In this document: positions 44,979-53,475 of the stretch, piece by piece
Layout of the letters: each line of letters starts with the position of its first letter
How positions within the stretch are numbered: position 1 is the stretch's first letter
Assembly (NCBI GenBank): GCA_024304995.1
Contig: JAMWZD010000004.1
Coordinates: 75,282-139,281, forward strand
Direction: 5' to 3'
Length of the DNA: 64,000 bases
Source of the DNA: Rickettsiales bacterium
GTDB lineage: Bacteria > Pseudomonadota > Alphaproteobacteria > Rickettsiales > UBA998
Position numbers and translations under genes: made by a program
The notes under the pieces: generated by a model
What the model was told of the DNA's origin: nothing
Database searches by the model: none
The model's input: the letters and a program-made list of their open reading frames with translations, nothing else

Positions 44979-45041
<63 letters not shown>

Positions 45042-45063
<22 letters not shown>

Positions 45064-45320
45064 ACCCTTATTTTGATAGATGCATATAATATTGAATTGT
45101 GTGAAAATTCATGTGAGATAACATCTGTAAAATTAGACGGATCTGGAATCTTTTGATCATGAAGATTTAATAATTCTATATGTACCTCTAATGCGTCACG
45201 CGAGGATTCGAACAGTTCAATTAAATTTGCTCCTGCTGAAATGCATCCTGGAAAATCAGGAAAACACATACCATACTGGCTATCAATATCTTTGTGAATA
45301 ATTCCGATATAGTTCGTCAT
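45042..45320 (-). CDS. HicB-family antitoxin-like protein (orphan; the last ~7 codons are read from the tRNA-Leu gene)
   Basis: 92 aa with YIGIIHKDIDSQYGMCFPDFPGCISAGANLIELFESSRDALEVHIELL...KIPDPS, which matches the HicB N-terminal fold pattern. The 3' 22 nt overlap the tRNA-Leu T arm and acceptor. No hicA is adjacent, because rnpB starts about 17 nt upstream. Confidence 0.65.
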
Positions 45321-45835: not shown

Positions 45836-47194
45836 ATGCAACAATCTAAAACGCACATCCTTTCTGGCTGGGGCAGAACGCCGCGCTATCTTTGCAAAAG
45901 CTGGCGGGCAGAACAGGTGCGTCACGCGGAAGATATCGTCACTCATGCATCAGAAGCGCTCATTGCGCGTGGCTGCGGTCGGTCATACGGCGATGCCGCC
46001 CTGCAACCAGATGGCGTATTGCATGTGCACCGAATGGACAAAATCCTCTCTTATGATGTGCAGACAGGAATCTTCACAGCGCAGTCAGGTGTGACATTGC
46101 GAGATATTATGCAGCGTTGCGTGAAAGATGGCTGGATGGTTCCTGTATTGTCTGGCACACAACATGTCAGCCTTGGCGGAGCGCTTGCCAGCAATATTCA
46201 CGGCAAAAATCACTATTGTGAAGGCAATATTGCAGATCATGTGCTGGAATGCAGCATCATGCTCGCCAATGGCGAAGTGGCATATTGCTCTCACACCGAG
46301 AACAGCGATTTATTTTACGCAACTGCAGGCGGCATGGGCATGACAGGGATTATTCTGGATGTCACATTGCAGCTTAAACGCATCAGCAGCACCACGCTTG
46401 AAAGTGCCACAAAGAAGGTGGATTCTTTGGAAGCGATGCTGGAATGTTTCGACACATCCAAAGACACTTCAGATTATATGGTCGGCTGGATTGACCATTT
46501 CGCCACAGGGAAAAAACTGGGGCGCGGTGTGTTTGAACGCGCTGTGCATCAGCATAATGGTGATGCCACATACCCTTTGCAGGTGCAGCCCCCCAAAAAA
46601 GCAAAGACTGTTCCAGACATTATCCCTTCTTTTTTGCTAAATCGTTACAGTATGGCGCTGTATAATCTGCTGCGGTTCCGCAAATATGACGAGGATTGGC
46701 GCGAAGAAATATCAGGATTTGAGCAATTTTTTCATCCGCTGGATAATCTGAATCACTGGAATAGATTATACGGCAAGAAAGGGTTCTATCAATATCAGTG
46801 CATTATTCCTGACAACAACAAGACGCTGGAACATATCACCCAGTTTTTGCAAACTATTCAGAAGAAACGGTGTTTTTCCTATCTGGCAGTGATGAAATAT
46901 CATCAGCCCCATCATTCCATGTTAGGGTTTGATATGGCAGGATATAGCATTGCGCTGGACTTTCCGAACGCTCCAAAATTTGTGGCGCTGCAAGGCGAAT
47001 TAAACCAGATGATCGCAGAAATGGGCGGGCGGGTTTACCTTGCAAAGGATGCGCTGCTGGAACGCAGATCATTTGAAGCAATGTATGCAGCAGAATTGGC
47101 AGACTGGAAAGCGGCTATCAAACAGATAGATCCCAATTTCCGTTTCCGCTCCGTTATGGCAGAACGACTAGGCTTTAAGGATGGTGCATCATGA
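45836..47194 (+). CDS. FAD-dependent oxidoreductase, DprE1-like (polyprenyl-phospho-ribose 2'-oxidase)
   Basis: 452 aa with full-length resemblance to M. tuberculosis DprE1 as I recall it. Matching blocks are SGWGRT, ARGCGRSYGDAA, SGTQHVSLGGALASNIHGKNHY, LFYATAGGMGMTGII, FFHPLDNLNHWNRLYGKKGFYQYQCIIP and RVYLAKD. Confidence 0.8.
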   Translation: MQQSKTHILSGWGRTPRYLCKSWRAEQVRHAEDIVTHASEALIARGCGRSYGDAALQPDGVLHVHRMDKILSYDVQTGIFTAQSGVTLRDIMQRCVKDGWMVPVLSGTQHVSLGGALASNIHGKNHYCEGNIADHVLECSIMLANGEVAYCSHTENSDLFYATAGGMGMTGIILDVTLQLKRISSTTLESATKKVDSLEAMLECFDTSKDTSDYMVGWIDHFATGKKLGRGVFERAVHQHNGDATYPLQVQPPKKAKTVPDIIPSFLLNRYSMALYNLLRFRKYDEDWREEISGFEQFFHPLDNLNHWNRLYGKKGFYQYQCIIPDNNKTLEHITQFLQTIQKKRCFSYLAVMKYHQPHHSMLGFDMAGYSIALDFPNAPKFVALQGELNQMIAEMGGRVYLAKDALLERRSFEAMYAAELADWKAAIKQIDPNFRFRSVMAERLGFKDGAS

Positions 47195-47889
47195 AACGGG
47201 CTTTGATTATTGGCGCAACCTCATCCCTTGCCGTCACTTTGTGTCGCAACCTGTCCGAAGAAGGCTGGACGTGTGATCTGCTGGGGCGCAATGAAGGTGA
47301 ACTGCACGCGCTGGCGGCAGATATTCTGGCACGCTACGGCATTGAAAGTCATATTATTTTAGCAGACTTAAGCGCTGCCCCCCCTGCCCTGAATTATGCA
47401 CCTTATCAGGCAGTGTTCATGCTGGCGGGAGCCATCAGCGATAATATCGCCACCTCTATGCAGGTGAATGTGACTGCACCTTGCGAAATGCTGCGCACGG
47501 CAGCTCAGAACATGCAGCAGCGTGGCATTGAGCAACGCAAGGAATGTCAGATTATTGTAGTCTCTTCCGTAGCAGGGGACAGAGGACGCGCCAGCAACTA
47601 TGTGTATGGCGCAGCAAAAGCGGCGCTCACAGCATTTGCTTCAGGGCTGCGCAACGAAATGCACGCTTACGGGATTCATGTGATGACGGTGAAACCAGGG
47701 TTTATAGATACGCCTATGACCTATCATATTTCCAGCCCGCTCATGGGCAGCCGCGAAACAGTGACGCGGGATATATTACGCGCGATGAAAAAACGAAAGG
47801 ATAGTATCTACACTCCATCCTTCTGGTATCTTATCATGCTGGTGGTGCGCAATATTCCTGAGCGTATCTTCAAACGACTTTCATTATAA
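47191..47889 (+). CDS. Short-chain dehydrogenase/reductase, DprE2-like
   Basis: 232 aa with IIGATSSLA and YGAAKAA. It has a 4-nt overlap with the DprE1-like gene, the same arrangement as dprE1-dprE2. Confidence 0.7.
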   Translation: MKRALIIGATSSLAVTLCRNLSEEGWTCDLLGRNEGELHALAADILARYGIESHIILADLSAAPPALNYAPYQAVFMLAGAISDNIATSMQVNVTAPCEMLRTAAQNMQQRGIEQRKECQIIVVSSVAGDRGRASNYVYGAAKAALTAFASGLRNEMHAYGIHVMTVKPGFIDTPMTYHISSPLMGSRETVTRDILRAMKKRKDSIYTPSFWYLIMLVVRNIPERIFKRLSL

Positions 47890-49706
47890 TGCAACCACGC
47901 ACCATCACGATTCTTGCGTTAATATATGCATATATCGTTTTTGTGCCGTGGTGGACTGCCCCTCCGCTGGCGGGGCTGGATGCATCATGGGAATGGATGC
48001 TGCACTGGGCGAATGCTCATAATAAACAGTTTGGCACAGAAATTATCTGGCCTTATGGCCCGTTAGGGTTTGTGTTTGCACCACAATATCATCCTGACAC
48101 CTTTGCAGGGCTTATTTTTATACGCGCGATTCTAGTCACTGCGTTGTGCGCAGGTGCATATTATATATTCAATCCCGCACAATCCTACAAACGCGCAGCA
48201 AGCTATGTTTTGCTGATTATCAGCGCTGGCTATACACTGGATGCGTTATACATCACATTGTTGTTGCTATTGTTGCATCAGCAATATTTCAGATATTATA
48301 TGCCGTCATGGGCATTGCATCTTCTGATTATTGCTCTTTCCATTGCTTCATTAGTGAAATTCTCAGTGTTGGTAATGTGTTTATGCGCCTTTGCCATGTT
48401 GTCATTATGGCAGCTTAAACGCCGCCATATGCCTTATAGCACTTTGCTATATGGCGTTTCTCTCATCATATTATGGATGATTTGCGAACAGAAACCTGGC
48501 AATATTCCAGATTATCTGGCGCATAGTCTGGAATTGTCACGCTATTTCGGCACGATGACGAAAATAGGATCATGGCAGCAGCTTTGCCTGTTTGTTTTAT
48601 CTGCCATGCTGCTTGGCTGTTCATACCTAACAAATATCAAACAGAAAGCCGTGTTATTTTATGCTCTGACAATGGGAGGATTGCTGTTTTTAAGTTATAA
48701 GGCAGGGTTCATTCGTCATGATGCACTGCGCAGTCTGCTGCCATTCATTGTGCTGGTGCAGCTTTATGTGTTATATGCCTGTCATTGCACCAAAATGCGG
48801 GCAAAATGTGCATGGTCTATTGGAATCTGCTTTGCCGCAGCAGGCGCTATTTTGATGTTCTGGCAATATAGCTTCCCAACGCACCGCCATAATAACTATA
48901 CGGTTCAGGGATTTTTGCACCGTGTTCAGCATGACAAAGCTGCAGCACGCACTGCGTTTTTGCAACAGCAGCAAAAGCGACTTTCTGTGAAGCATAATGC
49001 AGCATCTGACATATATATGCATGAACTTGCGCCATTGCTGGCACATGACACCGCAGAAAATCTGCAATACGCCCCTCGCCCTGTGCCACAAAGTTATTCA
49101 GCTTATAGCGCCGCCCTGCAGCAGATAAATGCACAGCATATTTCAGCCAATGTCATCTATATTGAAGTTTACACGATTGATAACCGCCTACCCGCTTTGC
49201 AGGATGCACCTTCATGGCTGCAATGGTTGCAGCATTTCAGCGTTGAACGAATTATTAATAATGCAGAAGGCAGGCAGTTTGTGGTTTTGAAGCGTCATCA
49301 AAAAGCTGCGCCAGTATCGTTGCAGAATCTATCAACGCATAAAATTTCAGTTGGTGACATATTGCGCGTGCCAGAAGCAGGCGCTGTCTGGGCGCATATT
49401 ACGACAAATCAAACATGGCTGGGAAAAACGGCATCCTTTCTCTACAAACCAGAAATGGTCGCAATAGAGCTGCAACTTGCAAATGGGAAAAAAGTTACGC
49501 ATCGTCTGATTGCTGATATGGCGACAGGAGGGTTTCTGCTCAGCCCATACGTGCATGATGCAACCTCTTTGACGCAGTGGCTTAAAGGGGAGTCACAGCA
49601 AGAAAATCATGTAACTTCCTTGCGAATCATCAATGAATCAGGTGCAGATCTTACAAGCTGGTTTTATGAAACGCCAACCGTAACATTTCAAAAAATCATA
49701 CGCTAG
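47889..49706 (+). CDS. Polytopic membrane protein with large C-terminal extracytoplasmic domain (candidate GT-C-type glycosyltransferase)
   Basis: 605 aa. About ten hydrophobic segments fall in the first ~330 aa, the first loop carries acidic/aromatic residues (GLDASWEWMLHW...WPYGPLGF), and a soluble domain of about 270 aa follows. The start overlaps the DprE2-like stop. I recognise no family, so the function is inferred from context only. Confidence 0.45.
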   Translation: MQPRTITILALIYAYIVFVPWWTAPPLAGLDASWEWMLHWANAHNKQFGTEIIWPYGPLGFVFAPQYHPDTFAGLIFIRAILVTALCAGAYYIFNPAQSYKRAASYVLLIISAGYTLDALYITLLLLLLHQQYFRYYMPSWALHLLIIALSIASLVKFSVLVMCLCAFAMLSLWQLKRRHMPYSTLLYGVSLIILWMICEQKPGNIPDYLAHSLELSRYFGTMTKIGSWQQLCLFVLSAMLLGCSYLTNIKQKAVLFYALTMGGLLFLSYKAGFIRHDALRSLLPFIVLVQLYVLYACHCTKMRAKCAWSIGICFAAAGAILMFWQYSFPTHRHNNYTVQGFLHRVQHDKAAARTAFLQQQQKRLSVKHNAASDIYMHELAPLLAHDTAENLQYAPRPVPQSYSAYSAALQQINAQHISANVIYIEVYTIDNRLPALQDAPSWLQWLQHFSVERIINNAEGRQFVVLKRHQKAAPVSLQNLSTHKISVGDILRVPEAGAVWAHITTNQTWLGKTASFLYKPEMVAIELQLANGKKVTHRLIADMATGGFLLSPYVHDATSLTQWLKGESQQENHVTSLRIINESGADLTSWFYETPTVTFQKIIR

Positions 49707-50517
49707 GCTTGGGGCGCTCCTGCCAGAGAGTGCTATGATGGGTCTTCATCGCCTCTTCATCATGTGGGGCAGATGTATAATAATATAGCGCTATTGATTT
49801 TCGCGTCATATGTTCTGGGCAATTTAGCGGTTCAGGATGACCGTGATATGAGGTGCTGTCCGTATTGAATATTACGCAGCGGTTAAAGACTGGTGCAATT
49901 TTCTGCACGCATTGCTTCATGTTTTTGTCCCACAATTCCACATGACCGCCATAGTCATCCTGCCAGTTTTTGTTGAGATATAGCAACACATTGATACGGC
50001 GATATAATTGCAGTTTTTCAAGATAGTTAAAGTCTGCATGAACTTTCAGCTTGCCACCGCGCAAAATCTGATGCATTGCGCCGCCGTGAAAATGCGGATC
50101 AGGTATCAATCCTTCAATGCCTGTCAGCTTTTCTAAAAAATTAACGATAGCAAATGAGTTCAGTTGATTCAGCACATGAAACAAATAAGGGTGCGCACCT
50201 TCCATACGTTCAATATGGCGCACGCCCTGTTTCTTTGGCTGATTTTCCATGTCCCCTTTGCGCCAGTCATACCAGACCTTGTCATTGACTGCAGGGAAAT
50301 GTTCCAGCACCCCGTTAGCAACATGCTCAGGCAGGAAATTATCAATCATCACATGCGGATAAGGATCAGCGTTCTGGTAGCTTTCAGCGAATCGTTCACC
50401 CAGTGACGCATAATGCGCATTTTCGAGTGGTGAATAATCCAGCACTGAGTCCTGTTTCGGTTTGAAGAATGATAACATAATAGTCCCTGATAATTGCCTT
50501 AATCTTAGAATTAACAT
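49696..50517 (-). CDS. 2OG-Fe(II) oxygenase family protein (prolyl-4-hydroxylase-like)
   Basis: YPHVMIDNFLP..., HADFNY (HxD), GGHVELWD, and HGHPEPL/TRKSIALYYY (distal His and Arg). The probable start is the internal MLSFFKPKQ. It overlaps the 605-aa gene convergently by 11 nt. Confidence 0.75.
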   Translation of the reverse strand: MLILRLRQLSGTIMLSFFKPKQDSVLDYSPLENAHYASLGERFAESYQNADPYPHVMIDNFLPEHVANGVLEHFPAVNDKVWYDWRKGDMENQPKKQGVRHIERMEGAHPYLFHVLNQLNSFAIVNFLEKLTGIEGLIPDPHFHGGAMHQILRGGKLKVHADFNYLEKLQLYRRINVLLYLNKNWQDDYGGHVELWDKNMKQCVQKIAPVFNRCVIFNTDSTSYHGHPEPLNCPEHMTRKSIALYYYTSAPHDEEAMKTHHSTLWQERPKPSV

Positions 50518-50569: not shown

Positions 50570-51427
50570 ATGAGTGCCACCTTACAGTTGATTCGCCCGC
50601 GCCAATGGACAAAGAACCTCTTTGTTCTCGCACCATTATGCTTTTCTTTTGAATATGATTCTATGGAATCCGTTGCGCTTGCATTCATCGCTGTGGTTGC
50701 ATTCATTCTGGCTTGCTGCACAACCTATATCATTAATGATATGTATGACATTGAAGAAGACCGTGCGCACCCTATCAAATGTCACAGACCTTTAGCCTCT
50801 GGAAAGATAGGCATTAAAACTGCGTTTATCTTAGCCATTTCGTGCCTCAGTGCTGCAACATTATTCACGGTCTTTTTTCTGCCTCCATTCTGTCTGGTGA
50901 TCATCGCCTTATATCTGTTTTTGCAGGTGGCATATAATTTCAAACTCAAACACACCGCTTTGCTGGATGTTGTGACGATTGCATCTGGCTTTGTGTTACG
51001 TGTGCTTATGGGAGCCTATGCGATTAATGTGCCTGTTTCATCATGGATCGTAGTGACGACTTTCCTGCTTGCCTGCTTCCTTGGCTTTGGCAAACGGTTT
51101 CACGAAATTAACATGCTGGAATATGCCAATTCACGCATTAGTTTGCAGCGATATAGCAAAGAATTGCTGAATCAGCTTATCAGTGTGTCCTGCGCCGCAA
51201 CCTTCCTGAGTTACACCCTATATGCCGTGGATATTGGCAATGAACTGGACAAACCCGAAATTATGTATAGCGCCTTATTTGTGATTATGGGGCTGTTTCG
51301 TTATCTGCAGGTGCTATATGTTGATAAAGAAGGTGGAGAGCCAGAGCGCGTGTTGCTGCATGATGGTTTTTTCATGTGCAACTGCATCATCTGGCTGCTG
51401 GTCACCATCGGTATATTGTCATATTAG
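50570..51427 (+). CDS. UbiA-family prenyl-phosphate 5-phosphoribosyltransferase-like protein (Rv3806c-like)
   Basis: 285-aa polytopic protein with LIRPRQWTKNLFVLAP and NDMYDIEEDRAHPIKCHRPLASGKI, which match the decaprenyl-phosphate phosphoribosyltransferase pattern. Confidence 0.78.
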   Translation: MSATLQLIRPRQWTKNLFVLAPLCFSFEYDSMESVALAFIAVVAFILACCTTYIINDMYDIEEDRAHPIKCHRPLASGKIGIKTAFILAISCLSAATLFTVFFLPPFCLVIIALYLFLQVAYNFKLKHTALLDVVTIASGFVLRVLMGAYAINVPVSSWIVVTTFLLACFLGFGKRFHEINMLEYANSRISLQRYSKELLNQLISVSCAATFLSYTLYAVDIGNELDKPEIMYSALFVIMGLFRYLQVLYVDKEGGEPERVLLHDGFFMCNCIIWLLVTIGILSY

Positions 51428-51429
51428 CC

Positions 51430-51819
51430 ATGATAAAAACACTCACCCAACATCGTTTTTTCAGATTCTTGCTGGTGGGGGGAGTATGCACACTCATAGA
51501 TTTTGTGCTGTTTTATATCTTACACATCATCATTCAATGTGATTTAATCCCCAGCAATATCGCATCCTATGGGACAGGGCTTGCCTGTGCGTTTTTCATC
51601 AACCGCTACTGGACATTTGCAGATAGCCAGCACCGAACAAGACTGCAATTCTGGGTTTCTCTTTTGCTGGGTTATTTTGGATTGATACTGAACACGGCAA
51701 TCATCTGGATTCTGGAAGATGATATGCATGTCATGCTGGCAAAATGCATTGCGGTGTTTATTGTGGTATTTTATAATTATTTCGGCAATAAATGGCTGGT
51801 CTTTAAGGTGAAACAATAA
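51430..51819 (+). CDS. GtrA-family membrane protein
   Basis: The track ORF starts at 51376. The ATG at 51430, 3 nt after the UbiA stop, gives MIKTLTQHRFFRFLLVGGVCTLIDFVLFYIL, followed by NRYWTF and NKWLVF, typical of GtrA. Confidence 0.8.
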   Translation: MIKTLTQHRFFRFLLVGGVCTLIDFVLFYILHIIIQCDLIPSNIASYGTGLACAFFINRYWTFADSQHRTRLQFWVSLLLGYFGLILNTAIIWILEDDMHVMLAKCIAVFIVVFYNYFGNKWLVFKVKQ

Positions 51820-52239
51820 ATGGAATATATAATTCTTCTTGCACTGACCTGGCTGTTCAATGGCAGCGCAAAATACGCTGTGAATATGTGCTTTCACGGC
51901 AGAAAAAATGCGCTGGGACTGGTGGGTTATGGCGGTTTTCCAAGCACACACACTGCCATTGTCAGTGCGCAGTTATTCTATGTCGGTATGCAACATGGAT
52001 TTAACCATCCCGCCGTGGCAGCGATCCTTGCGCTATTATGGGTGGTTGTGAATGACGCAACTTCCTTGCGCAAAAAAATTCAGGATCATGCACAGCATCT
52101 GAACAAGCTGGATGACTCGCGCAATCACCGTGAACGCATCGCACATCACTGGCGGGATATTGTGGGTGGATTTGCAATGGGCGCAATCACCGCCCTGATT
52201 TATGCCGAAATCATAAAAAAAAGCCTTCTAACATTTTAA
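51820..52239 (+). CDS. Divergent PAP2-family (acid phosphatase/vanadium haloperoxidase-related) membrane protein
   Basis: 139 aa with GGFPSTHTAIVSA and a C-terminal HHWRDIVGG. The start abuts the gtrA-like stop. Confidence 0.7.
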   Translation: MEYIILLALTWLFNGSAKYAVNMCFHGRKNALGLVGYGGFPSTHTAIVSAQLFYVGMQHGFNHPAVAAILALLWVVVNDATSLRKKIQDHAQHLNKLDDSRNHRERIAHHWRDIVGGFAMGAITALIYAEIIKKSLLTF

Positions 52240-52244
52240 AAGGC

Positions 52245-52619
52245 TTATTCCCATACTCCTTCTATTCGGGGACTTTTGGGTTTTATTCCAGTTTTACGCT
52301 GAAATTCTTTGATTATCTGGTCTGTACGCGTATTAATAACTTTGCAATATGCTACTACATCACCATATTTTTTGTACAGTATATCATACGCCTTTTCCCA
52401 ATCATTTGCATAACATACTAAAGACGTTTTTGCGCTAAAATCATCATTATAGCGTTTTGGTGACAATTCAATACCATATCTCATACGAATATAATTATCG
52501 AAAAGCTCTCCATATTCTTCACGCTCTAAAGGTGTGTATTCAAAAGTGTCTGCGAAATATCTTCGTGCAGCTTCTGATGCAAACAGGTTTATTGCATCCA
52601 CTACTGTGAGTGAGTTCAT
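52245..52619 (-). CDS. Hypothetical protein (orphan)
   Basis: 124-aa soluble ORF, AT-rich. No family recognised. Confidence 0.45.
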   Translation of the reverse strand: MNSLTVVDAINLFASEAARRYFADTFEYTPLEREEYGELFDNYIRMRYGIELSPKRYNDDFSAKTSLVCYANDWEKAYDILYKKYGDVVAYCKVINTRTDQIIKEFQRKTGIKPKSPRIEGVWE

Positions 52620-52680
52620 GTTTATGATAAAGAAAAACGGTTATATCCTATATAACCGTTTATGTTTTTTATTACAAATG

Positions 52681-53046
52681 CTAATCTTCCCAGAGCGGTT
52701 TTTGCATTAAAGCGGGTTTGGGTGGTGCTGCTTCTGCCTGATGCACCATGCCATATTGAATGCCCATTTCGGCGCGAAGTTCTGGTGGAGGGTTTCCATG
52801 CCCTGCGGCAACAACCTGTCCAAAATCACTCGGAAAAAAATTATCGTTATTTAAAATTGCTTCCTTCATTTTGCGAAGGTTCAAAAGACTGAGCTTTACA
52901 TAAGAATACACACGTTCACCCATTGCATTGTTACCCTGAAGAAGCATTACAATGTCTTCACGCCGAAGAAGCTCTTCATCTTCTGCGCTTAAATGCTGGG
53001 GTGAAGCAGCATTTGTACTTATTTCATTGTCGCTCCATGAATCCAA
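52681..53046 (-). CDS. Hypothetical protein (orphan)
   Basis: 121-aa ORF. The track start is a TTG, so the true start is uncertain. The core reads YSYVKLSLLNLRKMKEAILNNDNFFPSDFGQVVAAGHGNPPPELRAEM. No family named. Confidence 0.4.
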   Translation of the reverse strand: MDSWSDNEISTNAASPQHLSAEDEELLRREDIVMLLQGNNAMGERVYSYVKLSLLNLRKMKEAILNNDNFFPSDFGQVVAAGHGNPPPELRAEMGIQYGMVHQAEAAPPKPALMQKPLWED

Positions 53047-53202
53047 AGGAATACTCTAATCTGTTATCTTTAAATGATATTATAATATTTTACACATTGT
53101 AACACAAAGGAAAACACACAGTTCTTTATTTTGCGTAAAATATTATCGTATAAATTGCTGTATCTGTTGGAAAAAAGTCAGTCTTGATATAATTAAGTCA
53201 GA

Positions 53203-53475
53203 TTAACCTAGTTCGATGCCACCTGATTTTGCCTGCACAGTATTTGCGCGCTCAACTGAATCTGCGTTAATAATGTTCGAAACATCCAGATCTTTTAATG
53301 AATTAACAACATCGTTTAACTCCTGATTACCACTTAATGCCTGAGACATTTGCTTGTCTTTGCCGATACTGTTAATTTCACCAAGCAACGCTTGCACTTC
53401 TGCGAATCTTGGGTCTTGATCGCTCATGCCTTCTACTGATGCTTCAATGCCTGCGGTTTGGAATGCTATACTCAT
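53203..53475 (-). CDS. Hypothetical small acidic helical protein (orphan)
   Basis: 90-aa ORF with no signal peptide. No family recognised. Confidence 0.4.
   Translation of the reverse strand: MSIAFQTAGIEASVEGMSDQDPRFAEVQALLGEINSIGKDKQMSQALSGNQELNDVVNSLKDLDVSNIINADSVERANTVQAKSGGIELG

Follow-up and report, generated by a model that had tools for sequence, protein, structure and literature searches.

The locus and its membrane protein

The stretch of DNA analyzed here, referred to below as the window, comprises 64,000 nucleotides from a Rickettsiales bacterium of the UBA998 lineage (GenBank contig JAMWZD010000004.1, positions 75,282 to 139,281 of the forward strand); the sequencing runs that contain it are DNA metagenomes, and it originates from an algal metagenome. 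A cluster spanning 6.4 kb of this window encodes all five functions of the decaprenylphosphoryl-arabinose (DPA) pathway, together with a 605-amino-acid polytopic membrane protein, the subject of this report, which we regard as a candidate pentofuranosyl (D-arabinofuranosyl) transferase resembling glycosyltransferases of the C type (GT-C). The mycobacterial DPA pathway set consists of Rv3806c, Rv3807c, DprE1/E2, and Rv3789. Within the cluster of the window, the 605-amino-acid protein is the only one that both lacks an assigned function and has a large extracytoplasmic domain (coordinates are collected in Table 1).

The stop codon (TAA) of the upstream gene, which encodes a DprE2-like short-chain dehydrogenase/reductase (SDR) and ends at 47889, shares one base with the ATG of the membrane protein gene (TAATG, 47887 to 47891). 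Since stop and start overlap in this way, and since no Shine-Dalgarno-like purine run was seen upstream of the ATG, coupled translation fits, in agreement with the initial annotation, which had pointed out the overlap and proposed the coupling. The open reading frame (ORF) is a real gene, as shown by homologues that share the cluster (55% and 53% identity) and by thousands of more distant relatives; scans for promoters and terminators and the base composition revealed nothing distinctive in this region. Ten other large ORFs of the window were scanned and represent housekeeping genes (complex I [nuo], ftsY, topA, polA, aspartate kinase, and phaC), without a second GT-C or other glycosyltransferase candidate among them.

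Table 1. Positions in the window of the cluster genes and of segments and residues of the 605-amino-acid protein
Feature	Position	Strand	Evidence or remark
Gene for the 605-amino-acid polytopic membrane protein, candidate GT-C-like pentofuranosyl (D-arabinofuranosyl) transferase	47889..49706	+	ATG start
Membrane domain, residues 1-327	47889..48869	+	11 predicted helices; N-terminus cytoplasmic (predicted)
First extracytoplasmic loop, residues 19-71, with juxtamembrane helix 30-43	47943..48101	+	GLD31xS33W34, G49xD/E51, Y56-G57-P58
D31 codon	47979-47981	+	Proposed catalytic acid/base
K157 codon (KFS motif), turn/kink between helices 140-156 and 158-177	48357..48359	+	98% conserved; proposed contact to the phosphate or donor
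Second long outward loop, residues 199-228	48483..48572	+	W196...GQ...LPxY...(G)Y219xxAM223
K271-x-G-F-x-R276-H-D278-x-x-R281, periplasmic end of helix 253-276	48699..48731	+	Conservation
Periplasmic C-terminal domain, residues 328-605 (278 residues), mixed alpha/beta	48870..49703	+	AlphaFold2 model
Family signature P396-R-P-V-P-Q401-S-Y403-S-A-Y406-S	49074..49109	+	Consensus PRPVFQSYSAYT
DprE1-like FAD oxidase, first half of 2'-epimerase	45836..47194	+	NF053785, 375 bits (equivalog cutoff 500); PF01565
DprE2-like SDR, second half of epimerase	47191..47889	+	NF053786, 124 bits (cutoff 250); PF00106
2-Oxoglutarate (2OG)-Fe(II) oxygenase, prolyl-hydroxylase-like, convergent	49696-50517	-	PF13640
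UbiA-family polyprenyl-phosphate phosphoribosyltransferase, donor synthase	50570..51427	+	NF008977, 220 bits; NF008978, 209 bits, above the 207-bit cutoff
GtrA-family small membrane protein, candidate flippase for lipid-linked sugar	51376..51819	+	PF04138, E = 7.8e-24
Divergent PAP2 (DUF212) membrane phosphatase, candidate 5'-phosphoribose phosphatase	51820..52239	+	PF02681, E = 1.3e-21

Predicted topology and conserved residues

Hydropathy analysis yielded eight strong peaks within residues 1 to 329, and assignment of helices to the AlphaFold2 model with DSSP gave 11 (residues 3 to 18, 72 to 94, 100 to 113, 117 to 134, 140 to 156, 158 to 177, 183 to 198, 229 to 247, 253 to 276, 279 to 299, and 303 to 327), a count that drops to 9 if 100 to 134 and 140 to 177 are single long, kinked helices rather than hairpins. 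Both results accord with the approximately ten hydrophobic segments originally noted in the first ~330 residues. With either helix count, loop 19 to 71, loop 199 to 228, R276, and the C-terminal domain stay outside in the predicted topology. By the helix boundaries of the model, the cytoplasmic loops are basic and no longer than five residues each; near the helix ends, 17 Lys/Arg residues are predicted inside versus 8 outside, and all eight acidic residues of the inter-helix loops are predicted outside. The positive-inside rule and helix parity thus put loop 1 and the C-terminal domain on the extracytoplasmic side, where the initial annotation had placed its acidic first loop; the acidic/aromatic sequence quoted at that time corresponds to residues 29 to 61, GLDASWEWMLHWANAHNKQFGTEIIWPYGPLGF, which contain GLDASW...YGPLGF. 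Two traits of the GT-C superfamily are therefore found in the prediction: an N-terminal domain of 7 to 13 helices whose N-terminus is cytoplasmic, and a long first outer loop that carries a juxtamembrane helix and a conserved acidic residue, the orientation of this loop being predicted.

Conservation was assessed across 194 diverse family members. In loop 1, G49, G57, and P58 are invariant (100%), D31, S33, and W34 are conserved at 97%, 97%, and 98%, and position 51 is acidic in 94%. Further conserved positions are K157 at the turn between helices 5 and 6 (98%), Y219 and M223 in the second long loop (93% and 98%), and K271, R276, and D278 at the end of helix 9 (96%, 99%, and 85%). The remainder of the conserved set lies in the periplasmic domain: D374 (94%), Q401 (99.5%), Y403 (98%), Y406 (95%), N414 (94%), D431 (96%), and R433 (91%), as well as P396-R-P398. 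All near-invariant polar residues (D31, K157, K271, R276, PRPxxQSYxxY, and IDxR) are predicted to lie on the outer or periplasmic side; by the predicted topology, the conserved polar residues therefore face the periplasm, the side on which an enzyme with a flipped, lipid-linked donor should have them.

The hydrophilic C-terminal domain, previously estimated at about 270 residues, comprises 278 that are predicted to be periplasmic. It consists of linker helices (333 to 364), a highly conserved alpha/beta part (approximately 366 to 450), and a less conserved part resembling a beta-sandwich (approximately 450 to 605). The most conserved block of the whole family is the P396-Y406 signature with D374, L410, N414, and I430-D431-x-R433. 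For the C-terminal part, the only Foldseek matches were weak ones, to the carbohydrate-binding module of AlgX and to jelly-roll proteins.

Resemblance of the predicted structure to GT-C enzymes

The AlphaFold2 model, built from a 33-sequence alignment, had a mean pLDDT of 92.3 and a pTM of 0.92. When the full-length model was compared with the PDB by Foldseek, the six best matches were all GT-C enzymes (E = 4e-4 to 7e-2, probability 0.84 to 1.0), namely, the C-mannosyltransferase DPY19 (E = 4.3e-4), AftA (6.6e-4), ArnT (1.2e-2), two STT3 chains, and AftB, with Pmt4 at rank 10. Residues 1 to 365, modelled separately (pLDDT 90.4), again had AftB, AftA, ArnT, DPY19, and STT3 on top; this shorter model had been expected to sharpen the GT-C match, and the ranking was the same, but the E-values were weaker. 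By structure or hidden Markov model (Foldseek, Pfam, and PDB profile), no transporter or other nonglycosyltransferase, a possibility against which the initial annotation had cautioned, was found above the GT-C matches, and the consistent structural neighbors are GT-C enzymes. We thus read the model as a GT-C-like architecture that has diverged strongly from all families with a solved structure; the same enzymes head the list each time, but the statistics are by themselves insufficient.

A large family of hypothetical proteins

The absence of any match to a named family, remarked on at the outset, holds for Pfam-A and NCBIfam at E ≤ 0.1, with nothing besides 13-bit noise, and for PDB chain sequences at E ≤ 10. 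A word-indexed search found 55 relatives, none with Pfam domains, and all source names given were "hypothetical protein," which is also the RefSeq label of family members. Against a database of 1.84 billion representatives of clusters at 50% identity, a profile of 33 members retrieved 10,741 proteins at E ≤ 1e-3, of which 6,823 reached E ≤ 1e-30. A scan for the family signature in one genome per species yielded relatives in 466 genomes, with identities to the window protein of at most 29%; the phyla include Pseudomonadota, Verrucomicrobiota, Acidobacteriota, and Planctomycetota, and the archaeon Methanoculleus is represented as well. No description of the family was found in a literature search. 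Judged by these sequence comparisons, it is a very large family without a name in Pfam, NCBIfam, or PDB searches. In a rough neighbor-joining tree, the majority of the DPA-linked members group in a single large clade; elsewhere in the tree, clades are associated with GT2 and PMT_2 genes or lack donor genes in their vicinity.

Three further observations concern relatives of the protein. First, the methanogen Methanoculleus sediminis (NZ_JXOJ01000001.1; locus L076 in our numbering) carries a family member with 25% identity over residues 26 to 579 and has a GT2-like gene within 10 kb. Second, long members of about 780 to 800 residues (L004:5521-7965, L004:8001-10361, and relatives in L053, L078, L079, and L005) have an extra C-terminal module of about 130 residues, HAPS..G.FG..DG.EF...DR...F...DW.YW.D, which is absent from the window protein. 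This module is common to neighboring PMT_2-type GT-C proteins (hhalign P = 97%) and may be a shared glycan-binding domain; it, and not the membrane domain, accounts for a link to PMT_2 that phmmer had suggested and that we rejected. Third, the best viral structural match (Foldseek, BFVD) was A0A8S5S3I0, an uncharacterized 810-residue protein of Siphoviridae sp. ctBLh2 (probability 1.0, E = 8e-3, 16% identity over 304 columns), which may be a phage- or prophage-borne relative; the viral-structure search gave nothing useful beyond this one protein.

Co-occurrence with donor synthesis genes

To the genes that adjoin the membrane protein gene in the window we compared those of 85 loci, 80 of them from species genomes, by searching the ORFs within 10 kb on either side with the proteins of the window as queries. 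The same arrangement of seven genes was found on other metagenome contigs around the two nearest homologues (55% and 53% identity). DprE1-like, SDR, and UbiA genes all lie within 10 kb of a family member in 26 of the 80 species-genome loci, whereas, with at most one such cluster per 5-Mb genome, a randomly chosen 20-kb segment would hold it in less than 0.5% of cases. The co-occurrence with genes for polyprenyl-phosphate pentofuranose donors, which the initial annotation had proposed as a check, is thus far above chance.

The genes often recur in the order UbiA-DprE1-DprE2-X, in which X, directly after DprE2, is the family member, usually followed by genes for an NAD-dependent epimerase and an FAD oxidoreductase. 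This order was seen in Janthinobacterium, Paraburkholderia, Legionella gratiana, Erwinia, Nitrospiraceae, Desulfobulbaceae, and others, and plasmids of Rhizobium tumorigenes and Burkholderia stagnalis in RefSeq carry this module as well, with X labelled "hypothetical protein." Other family members adjoin genes resembling GT2 polyprenyl-phosphate-sugar synthases or PMT_2 GT-C genes.

As observed in many Proteobacteria (loci L006, L008, L017, L019, L025, L032, L056, L065, L066, L072, L086 [NZ_CP117256.1 730589-741144], and L093 [NZ_CP156687.1]), the full recurrent operon, which is apparently uncharacterized, encodes UbiA, often fused to a HAD phosphatase, DprE1, DprE2, X, the epimerase, the FAD (amine-oxidase-like) oxidoreductase, and sometimes GtrA; the epimerase and the oxidoreductase suggest a further-modified pentofuranose. 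In other UbiA/DprE clusters, the transferase slot is filled by at least four other polytopic membrane families, three without a Pfam model and one DUF6044 (L088:10051-11256 [NoeP], L089:10212-11768, L091:14533-16509, and L087:3722-5419), so that the transferase component of such systems looks highly polyphyletic.

Proposed pathway and alternative explanations

Taken together, the GT-C-like model, the donor gene context, and the predicted topology suggest that the 605-amino-acid protein is probably the periplasm-facing glycosyltransferase of a stand-alone DPA-like pathway and moves a pentofuranose to an acceptor in the cell envelope, which supports the initial proposal that it is the transferase of the system. 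We hold the transferase role to be likely and that of a GT-C-like glycosyltransferase in general to be somewhat more so. In the pathway that we envisage, the UbiA enzyme would move 5-phosphoribose from phosphoribosyl pyrophosphate to polyprenyl phosphate, the PAP2-like phosphatase would take off the 5'-phosphate, and the DprE1-like and DprE2-like proteins would epimerize C2' to give polyprenyl-phospho-D-arabinofuranose. The GtrA protein would then flip the lipid-linked sugar over the membrane, and the 605-amino-acid protein would transfer the pentofuranose to the acceptor on the outer side of the inner membrane. In this last step, D31 of the first juxtamembrane helix, with the acidic residue at position 51, may serve as the catalytic acid/base, activating the acceptor hydroxyl or positioning the sugar; K157, K271, and R276, at the boundary of the outer leaflet, may hold the lipid phosphate; and the periplasmic block (D374, PRPxxQSYxxY, N414, and IDxR) may bind the acceptor or else complete or close the active site, like the periplasmic domain of PglB/STT3.

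Several observations weigh against this proposal. Full-length TM-scores to GT-C enzymes are low (0.25 to 0.40, with root mean square deviations above 10 Å), and the matches of the model of residues 1 to 365 are not significant (E = 0.15 to 1; TM-scores of 0.31 to 0.41). The 33-member family profile returned only noise from PDB chain sequences at E ≤ 10; Pfam models gave zero matches to the 33 members at E ≤ 1 and no link to any GT-C family; and as for PMT_2/ArnT-like proteins (PF13231), there was no Pfam match, and an hhalign comparison of the membrane domain with nine PMT_2-type proteins reached P = 0.4% (E = 0.15), D31 being aligned with the PMT "DE" motif in this nonsignificant alignment. 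Position 281, which is His in 95% of the family, is Arg in the window protein and two close relatives, and these three form a long branch of their own in the tree. In about two-thirds of the family loci, donor genes are lacking within 10 kb, so that donor use is not uniform in the family. The DprE1-like and DprE2-like scores are below the NCBIfam equivalog cutoffs, which means that the sugar could differ from D-arabinofuranose (D-Araf). Finally, no pilin, O-antigen, or Nod genes are located near the cluster, and no acceptor gene can be named.

Of the alternatives, we consider it unlikely that the protein is not a catalytic transferase but another membrane component (a lipid-diphosphate glycan polymerase or ligase, an acceptor scaffold, an exporter, or an anchored periplasmic enzyme that modifies or hydrolyzes glycans), with the real transferase encoded elsewhere. 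Such a role would be compatible with a GT-C fold similarity below the usual same-fold threshold (TM-score < 0.5), with conservation that is strongest in the periplasmic alpha/beta block and not in loop 1, and with a view limited to 64 kb of the genome, outside which a glycosyltransferase may lie. However, no transporter, Wzy/WaaL/SEDS-type, or hydrolase match ranked above the GT-C matches, the protein is the sole candidate for the transferase step in dozens of operons, and the GT-C pattern is recognizable in an almost invariant Asp where loop 1 begins and in basic residues on the outer side.

A GT-C-like transferase that acts on a sugar other than D-Araf, be it ribofuranose (Ribf), a 2-keto intermediate, or a donor made elsewhere in the genome, has in our judgment only a small chance of being correct. 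Besides the low DprE scores, it is favored by the Ribf and xylofuranose (Xylf) donors that GT136, discussed below, accepts, by the epimerase and oxidoreductase genes of most canonical-operon relatives, which imply tailoring of the sugar, and by the association of other family clades with GT2 genes. The clusters of the window and of the two closest relatives, however, contain the exact DPA enzyme set without an extra epimerase, the gene is translationally coupled to that of DprE2, and the DprE1/E2 homologues in Pseudomonas and rhizobia yield D-Araf.

We give a slim chance to a bolder version of the transferase reading, according to which the family would represent mechanistically distinct lipid-phosphate-sugar transferases in which the periplasmic block, and not loop 1 alone, would be catalytic or select the acceptor; in this algae-associated bacterium, the enzyme would build a novel D-Araf envelope glycoconjugate. 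Chance synteny, with the gene unrelated to any lipid-linked pentose pathway, is highly improbable: the adjacent oxygenase gene does show that unrelated genes can sit in the cluster, and most family loci have no donor genes nearby, but the linkage recurs over classes and phyla, the order of the genes being retained and stop and start codons overlapping, at a frequency (26 of 80) to be set against an expectation of less than 0.5%.

Comparison with known systems

The pathway concept is already known, since it was published in 2024: Kelly et al. (PMC11127046) showed that three components, a synthase of the UbiA type, a flippase, and the GT-C enzyme that founded family GT136, add alpha-pentofuranose side chains, with DprE1/E2 homologues present when the sugar is Araf, and they noted that the majority of such GT-C genes bear a hypothetical annotation. 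Both Ribf and Xylf serve as donors for GT136 (PMC11127046). The system of the window resembles that of Citrobacter youngae O1, in which ORF12 (GT136) is likewise accompanied by a UbiA-type synthase and a small flippase and is a polytopic protein assigned to GT-C on the basis of an AlphaFold model. Each of the two proteins has some 11 helices, a beta-rich domain at the C-terminus that lies in the periplasm, and, directly behind helix 1, a conserved Asp that is D31 in either case. They differ in that ORF12 reportedly matches EpsG in CDD, whereas the 33 members of the present family match no EpsG or other Pfam model; in that the essential residues of GT136 (E34, H106, R349, and Y350) have no counterparts at similar positions in the present family, which has its own invariant set (S33, W34, G57-P58, K157, R276, and PRPxxQSYxxY); and in the flippase, which is GtrA in the window cluster and a MATE protein in the C. 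youngae prototype. No member of the family was found at the Burkholderia multivorans locus, and hhalign indicated no relation to the GT-C that Kelly et al. list for Rhizobium sp. CCGE531 (P = 1.4%). Because the 33 members have no EpsG or Pfam match and the CCGE531 GT-C (Fig. S12 of Kelly et al.) is not detectably related, membership in GT136 is unlikely, a distinction drawn from the description of GT136.

Mycobacterial AftA, AftB, AftD, and EmbA/B/C (GT85, GT89, and GT53) use polyprenyl-phospho-D-Araf, which the same UbiA/PAP2/DprE1/DprE2 enzymes synthesize and a GtrA-family protein flips. Among the top structural matches of the 605-amino-acid protein are AftA and AftB, with TM-scores of 0.25 to 0.37 and a different periplasmic domain; no sequence homology to Emb/Aft was detected, even with the family profile against all PDB chains, and the host differs as well, being Gram negative and from an algal metagenome. 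TfpW, the D-Araf glycosyltransferase/oligosaccharyltransferase of Pseudomonas aeruginosa pilin, comes from a Gram-negative host, uses a donor derived from DprE1/DprE2/UbiA/GtrA, and shares 11 predicted helices, an inside N-terminus, a sizeable C-terminal domain in the periplasm, and an acidic motif in loop 1. According to the bioRxiv paper on TfpW, that protein has a DDX motif in loop 1, an Emb-like proline motif, and a C-terminal tetratricopeptide repeat (TPR) domain. Compared by description, TfpW thus differs from the window protein in the loop-1 motif (DDX versus LDxSW), in the C-terminal domain (all-helical TPR versus alpha/beta plus beta-sandwich), and in the location of its gene after pilA, there being no adjacent pilin gene in the window.

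The rhizobial NoeP, a candidate Nod-factor arabinosyltransferase, and DUF6044 proteins occupy the same slot beside UbiA/DprE1/DprE2/GtrA genes. An hhalign comparison of the family with Sinorhizobium alkalisoli NoeP gave P = 0.1%, with a single-sequence template that makes this a weak test, and P was also 0.1% for a DUF6044 (PF19510) protein from a PPPRS cluster, with no Pfam hit. A 518-residue protein of Rhizobium leguminosarum is faintly related to the family (hhalign P = 27%; hmmsearch E = 2.9e-5). The GT-C_A class enzymes ArnT, PMT_2, DPY19, and STT3 share the overall fold class, as judged from the Foldseek ranking, and differ in the class of the donor sugar.

Since there is no Pfam, NCBIfam, or PDB sequence relationship, the initial suggestion that the protein may represent a new GT-C family is a fair one; by sequence, it belongs to a new family that would fill a known role in a known kind of pathway. 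Mycobacteria provide the best-known D-Araf glycans, whose synthesis is a drug target there. In Gram-negative bacteria, to our knowledge, few examples are understood, namely, those of Pseudomonas pilin, rhizobial Nod factors, and certain O antigens. The family is a likely missing transferase in many UbiA/DprE clusters, and its carriers include culturable strains of Paraburkholderia, Erwinia, Legionella, and Rhizobium. If the assignment is true, it would mean a new CAZy family and an annotation for thousands of hypothetical proteins, and it would point to many new pentofuranose surface glycans, relevant to interactions of microbes with hosts or algae, to serotyping, and to glyco-engineering. Such a finding would interest glycobiologists without overturning current ideas.

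Other features of the cluster

The 2OG-Fe(II) oxygenase gene, which has an 11-nucleotide 3' overlap with the membrane protein gene, divides the cluster into two operons and is found in the same place in L001 and L002. We rejected the enzyme as a member of the pathway; it is probably a bystander, because, away from clusters of this kind, its family is very common and highly conserved (4,997 matches, 50 to 60% identity across phyla). By analogy with the arabinosylation of hydroxyproline in plants and algae, one might speculate that the acceptor is a protein hydroxylated by this oxygenase.

Immediately upstream of the cluster is a tRNA-Leu(TAG) gene (44979 to 45063, forward strand), which shares bases with the listed end of a HicB-like antitoxin ORF (45042 to 45320, reverse strand) and might mark an insertion site; the GC content across the cluster is unremarkable. 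On the other side, three small ORFs (124, 121, and 90 amino acids; 52245 to 53475, reverse strand) separate the cluster from genes for an amine oxidase, a DUF1365 protein, and a cyclopropane-fatty-acid synthase; at the matching position, L001 has two small genes (125 and 89 amino acids) without Pfam matches. Finally, the GtrA ORF as listed begins at a GTG within the UbiA gene, so that 52 nucleotides (51376 to 51427) are common to both; the arrangement in L001 is similar, and the true start of the GtrA gene may be an internal ATG further downstream.

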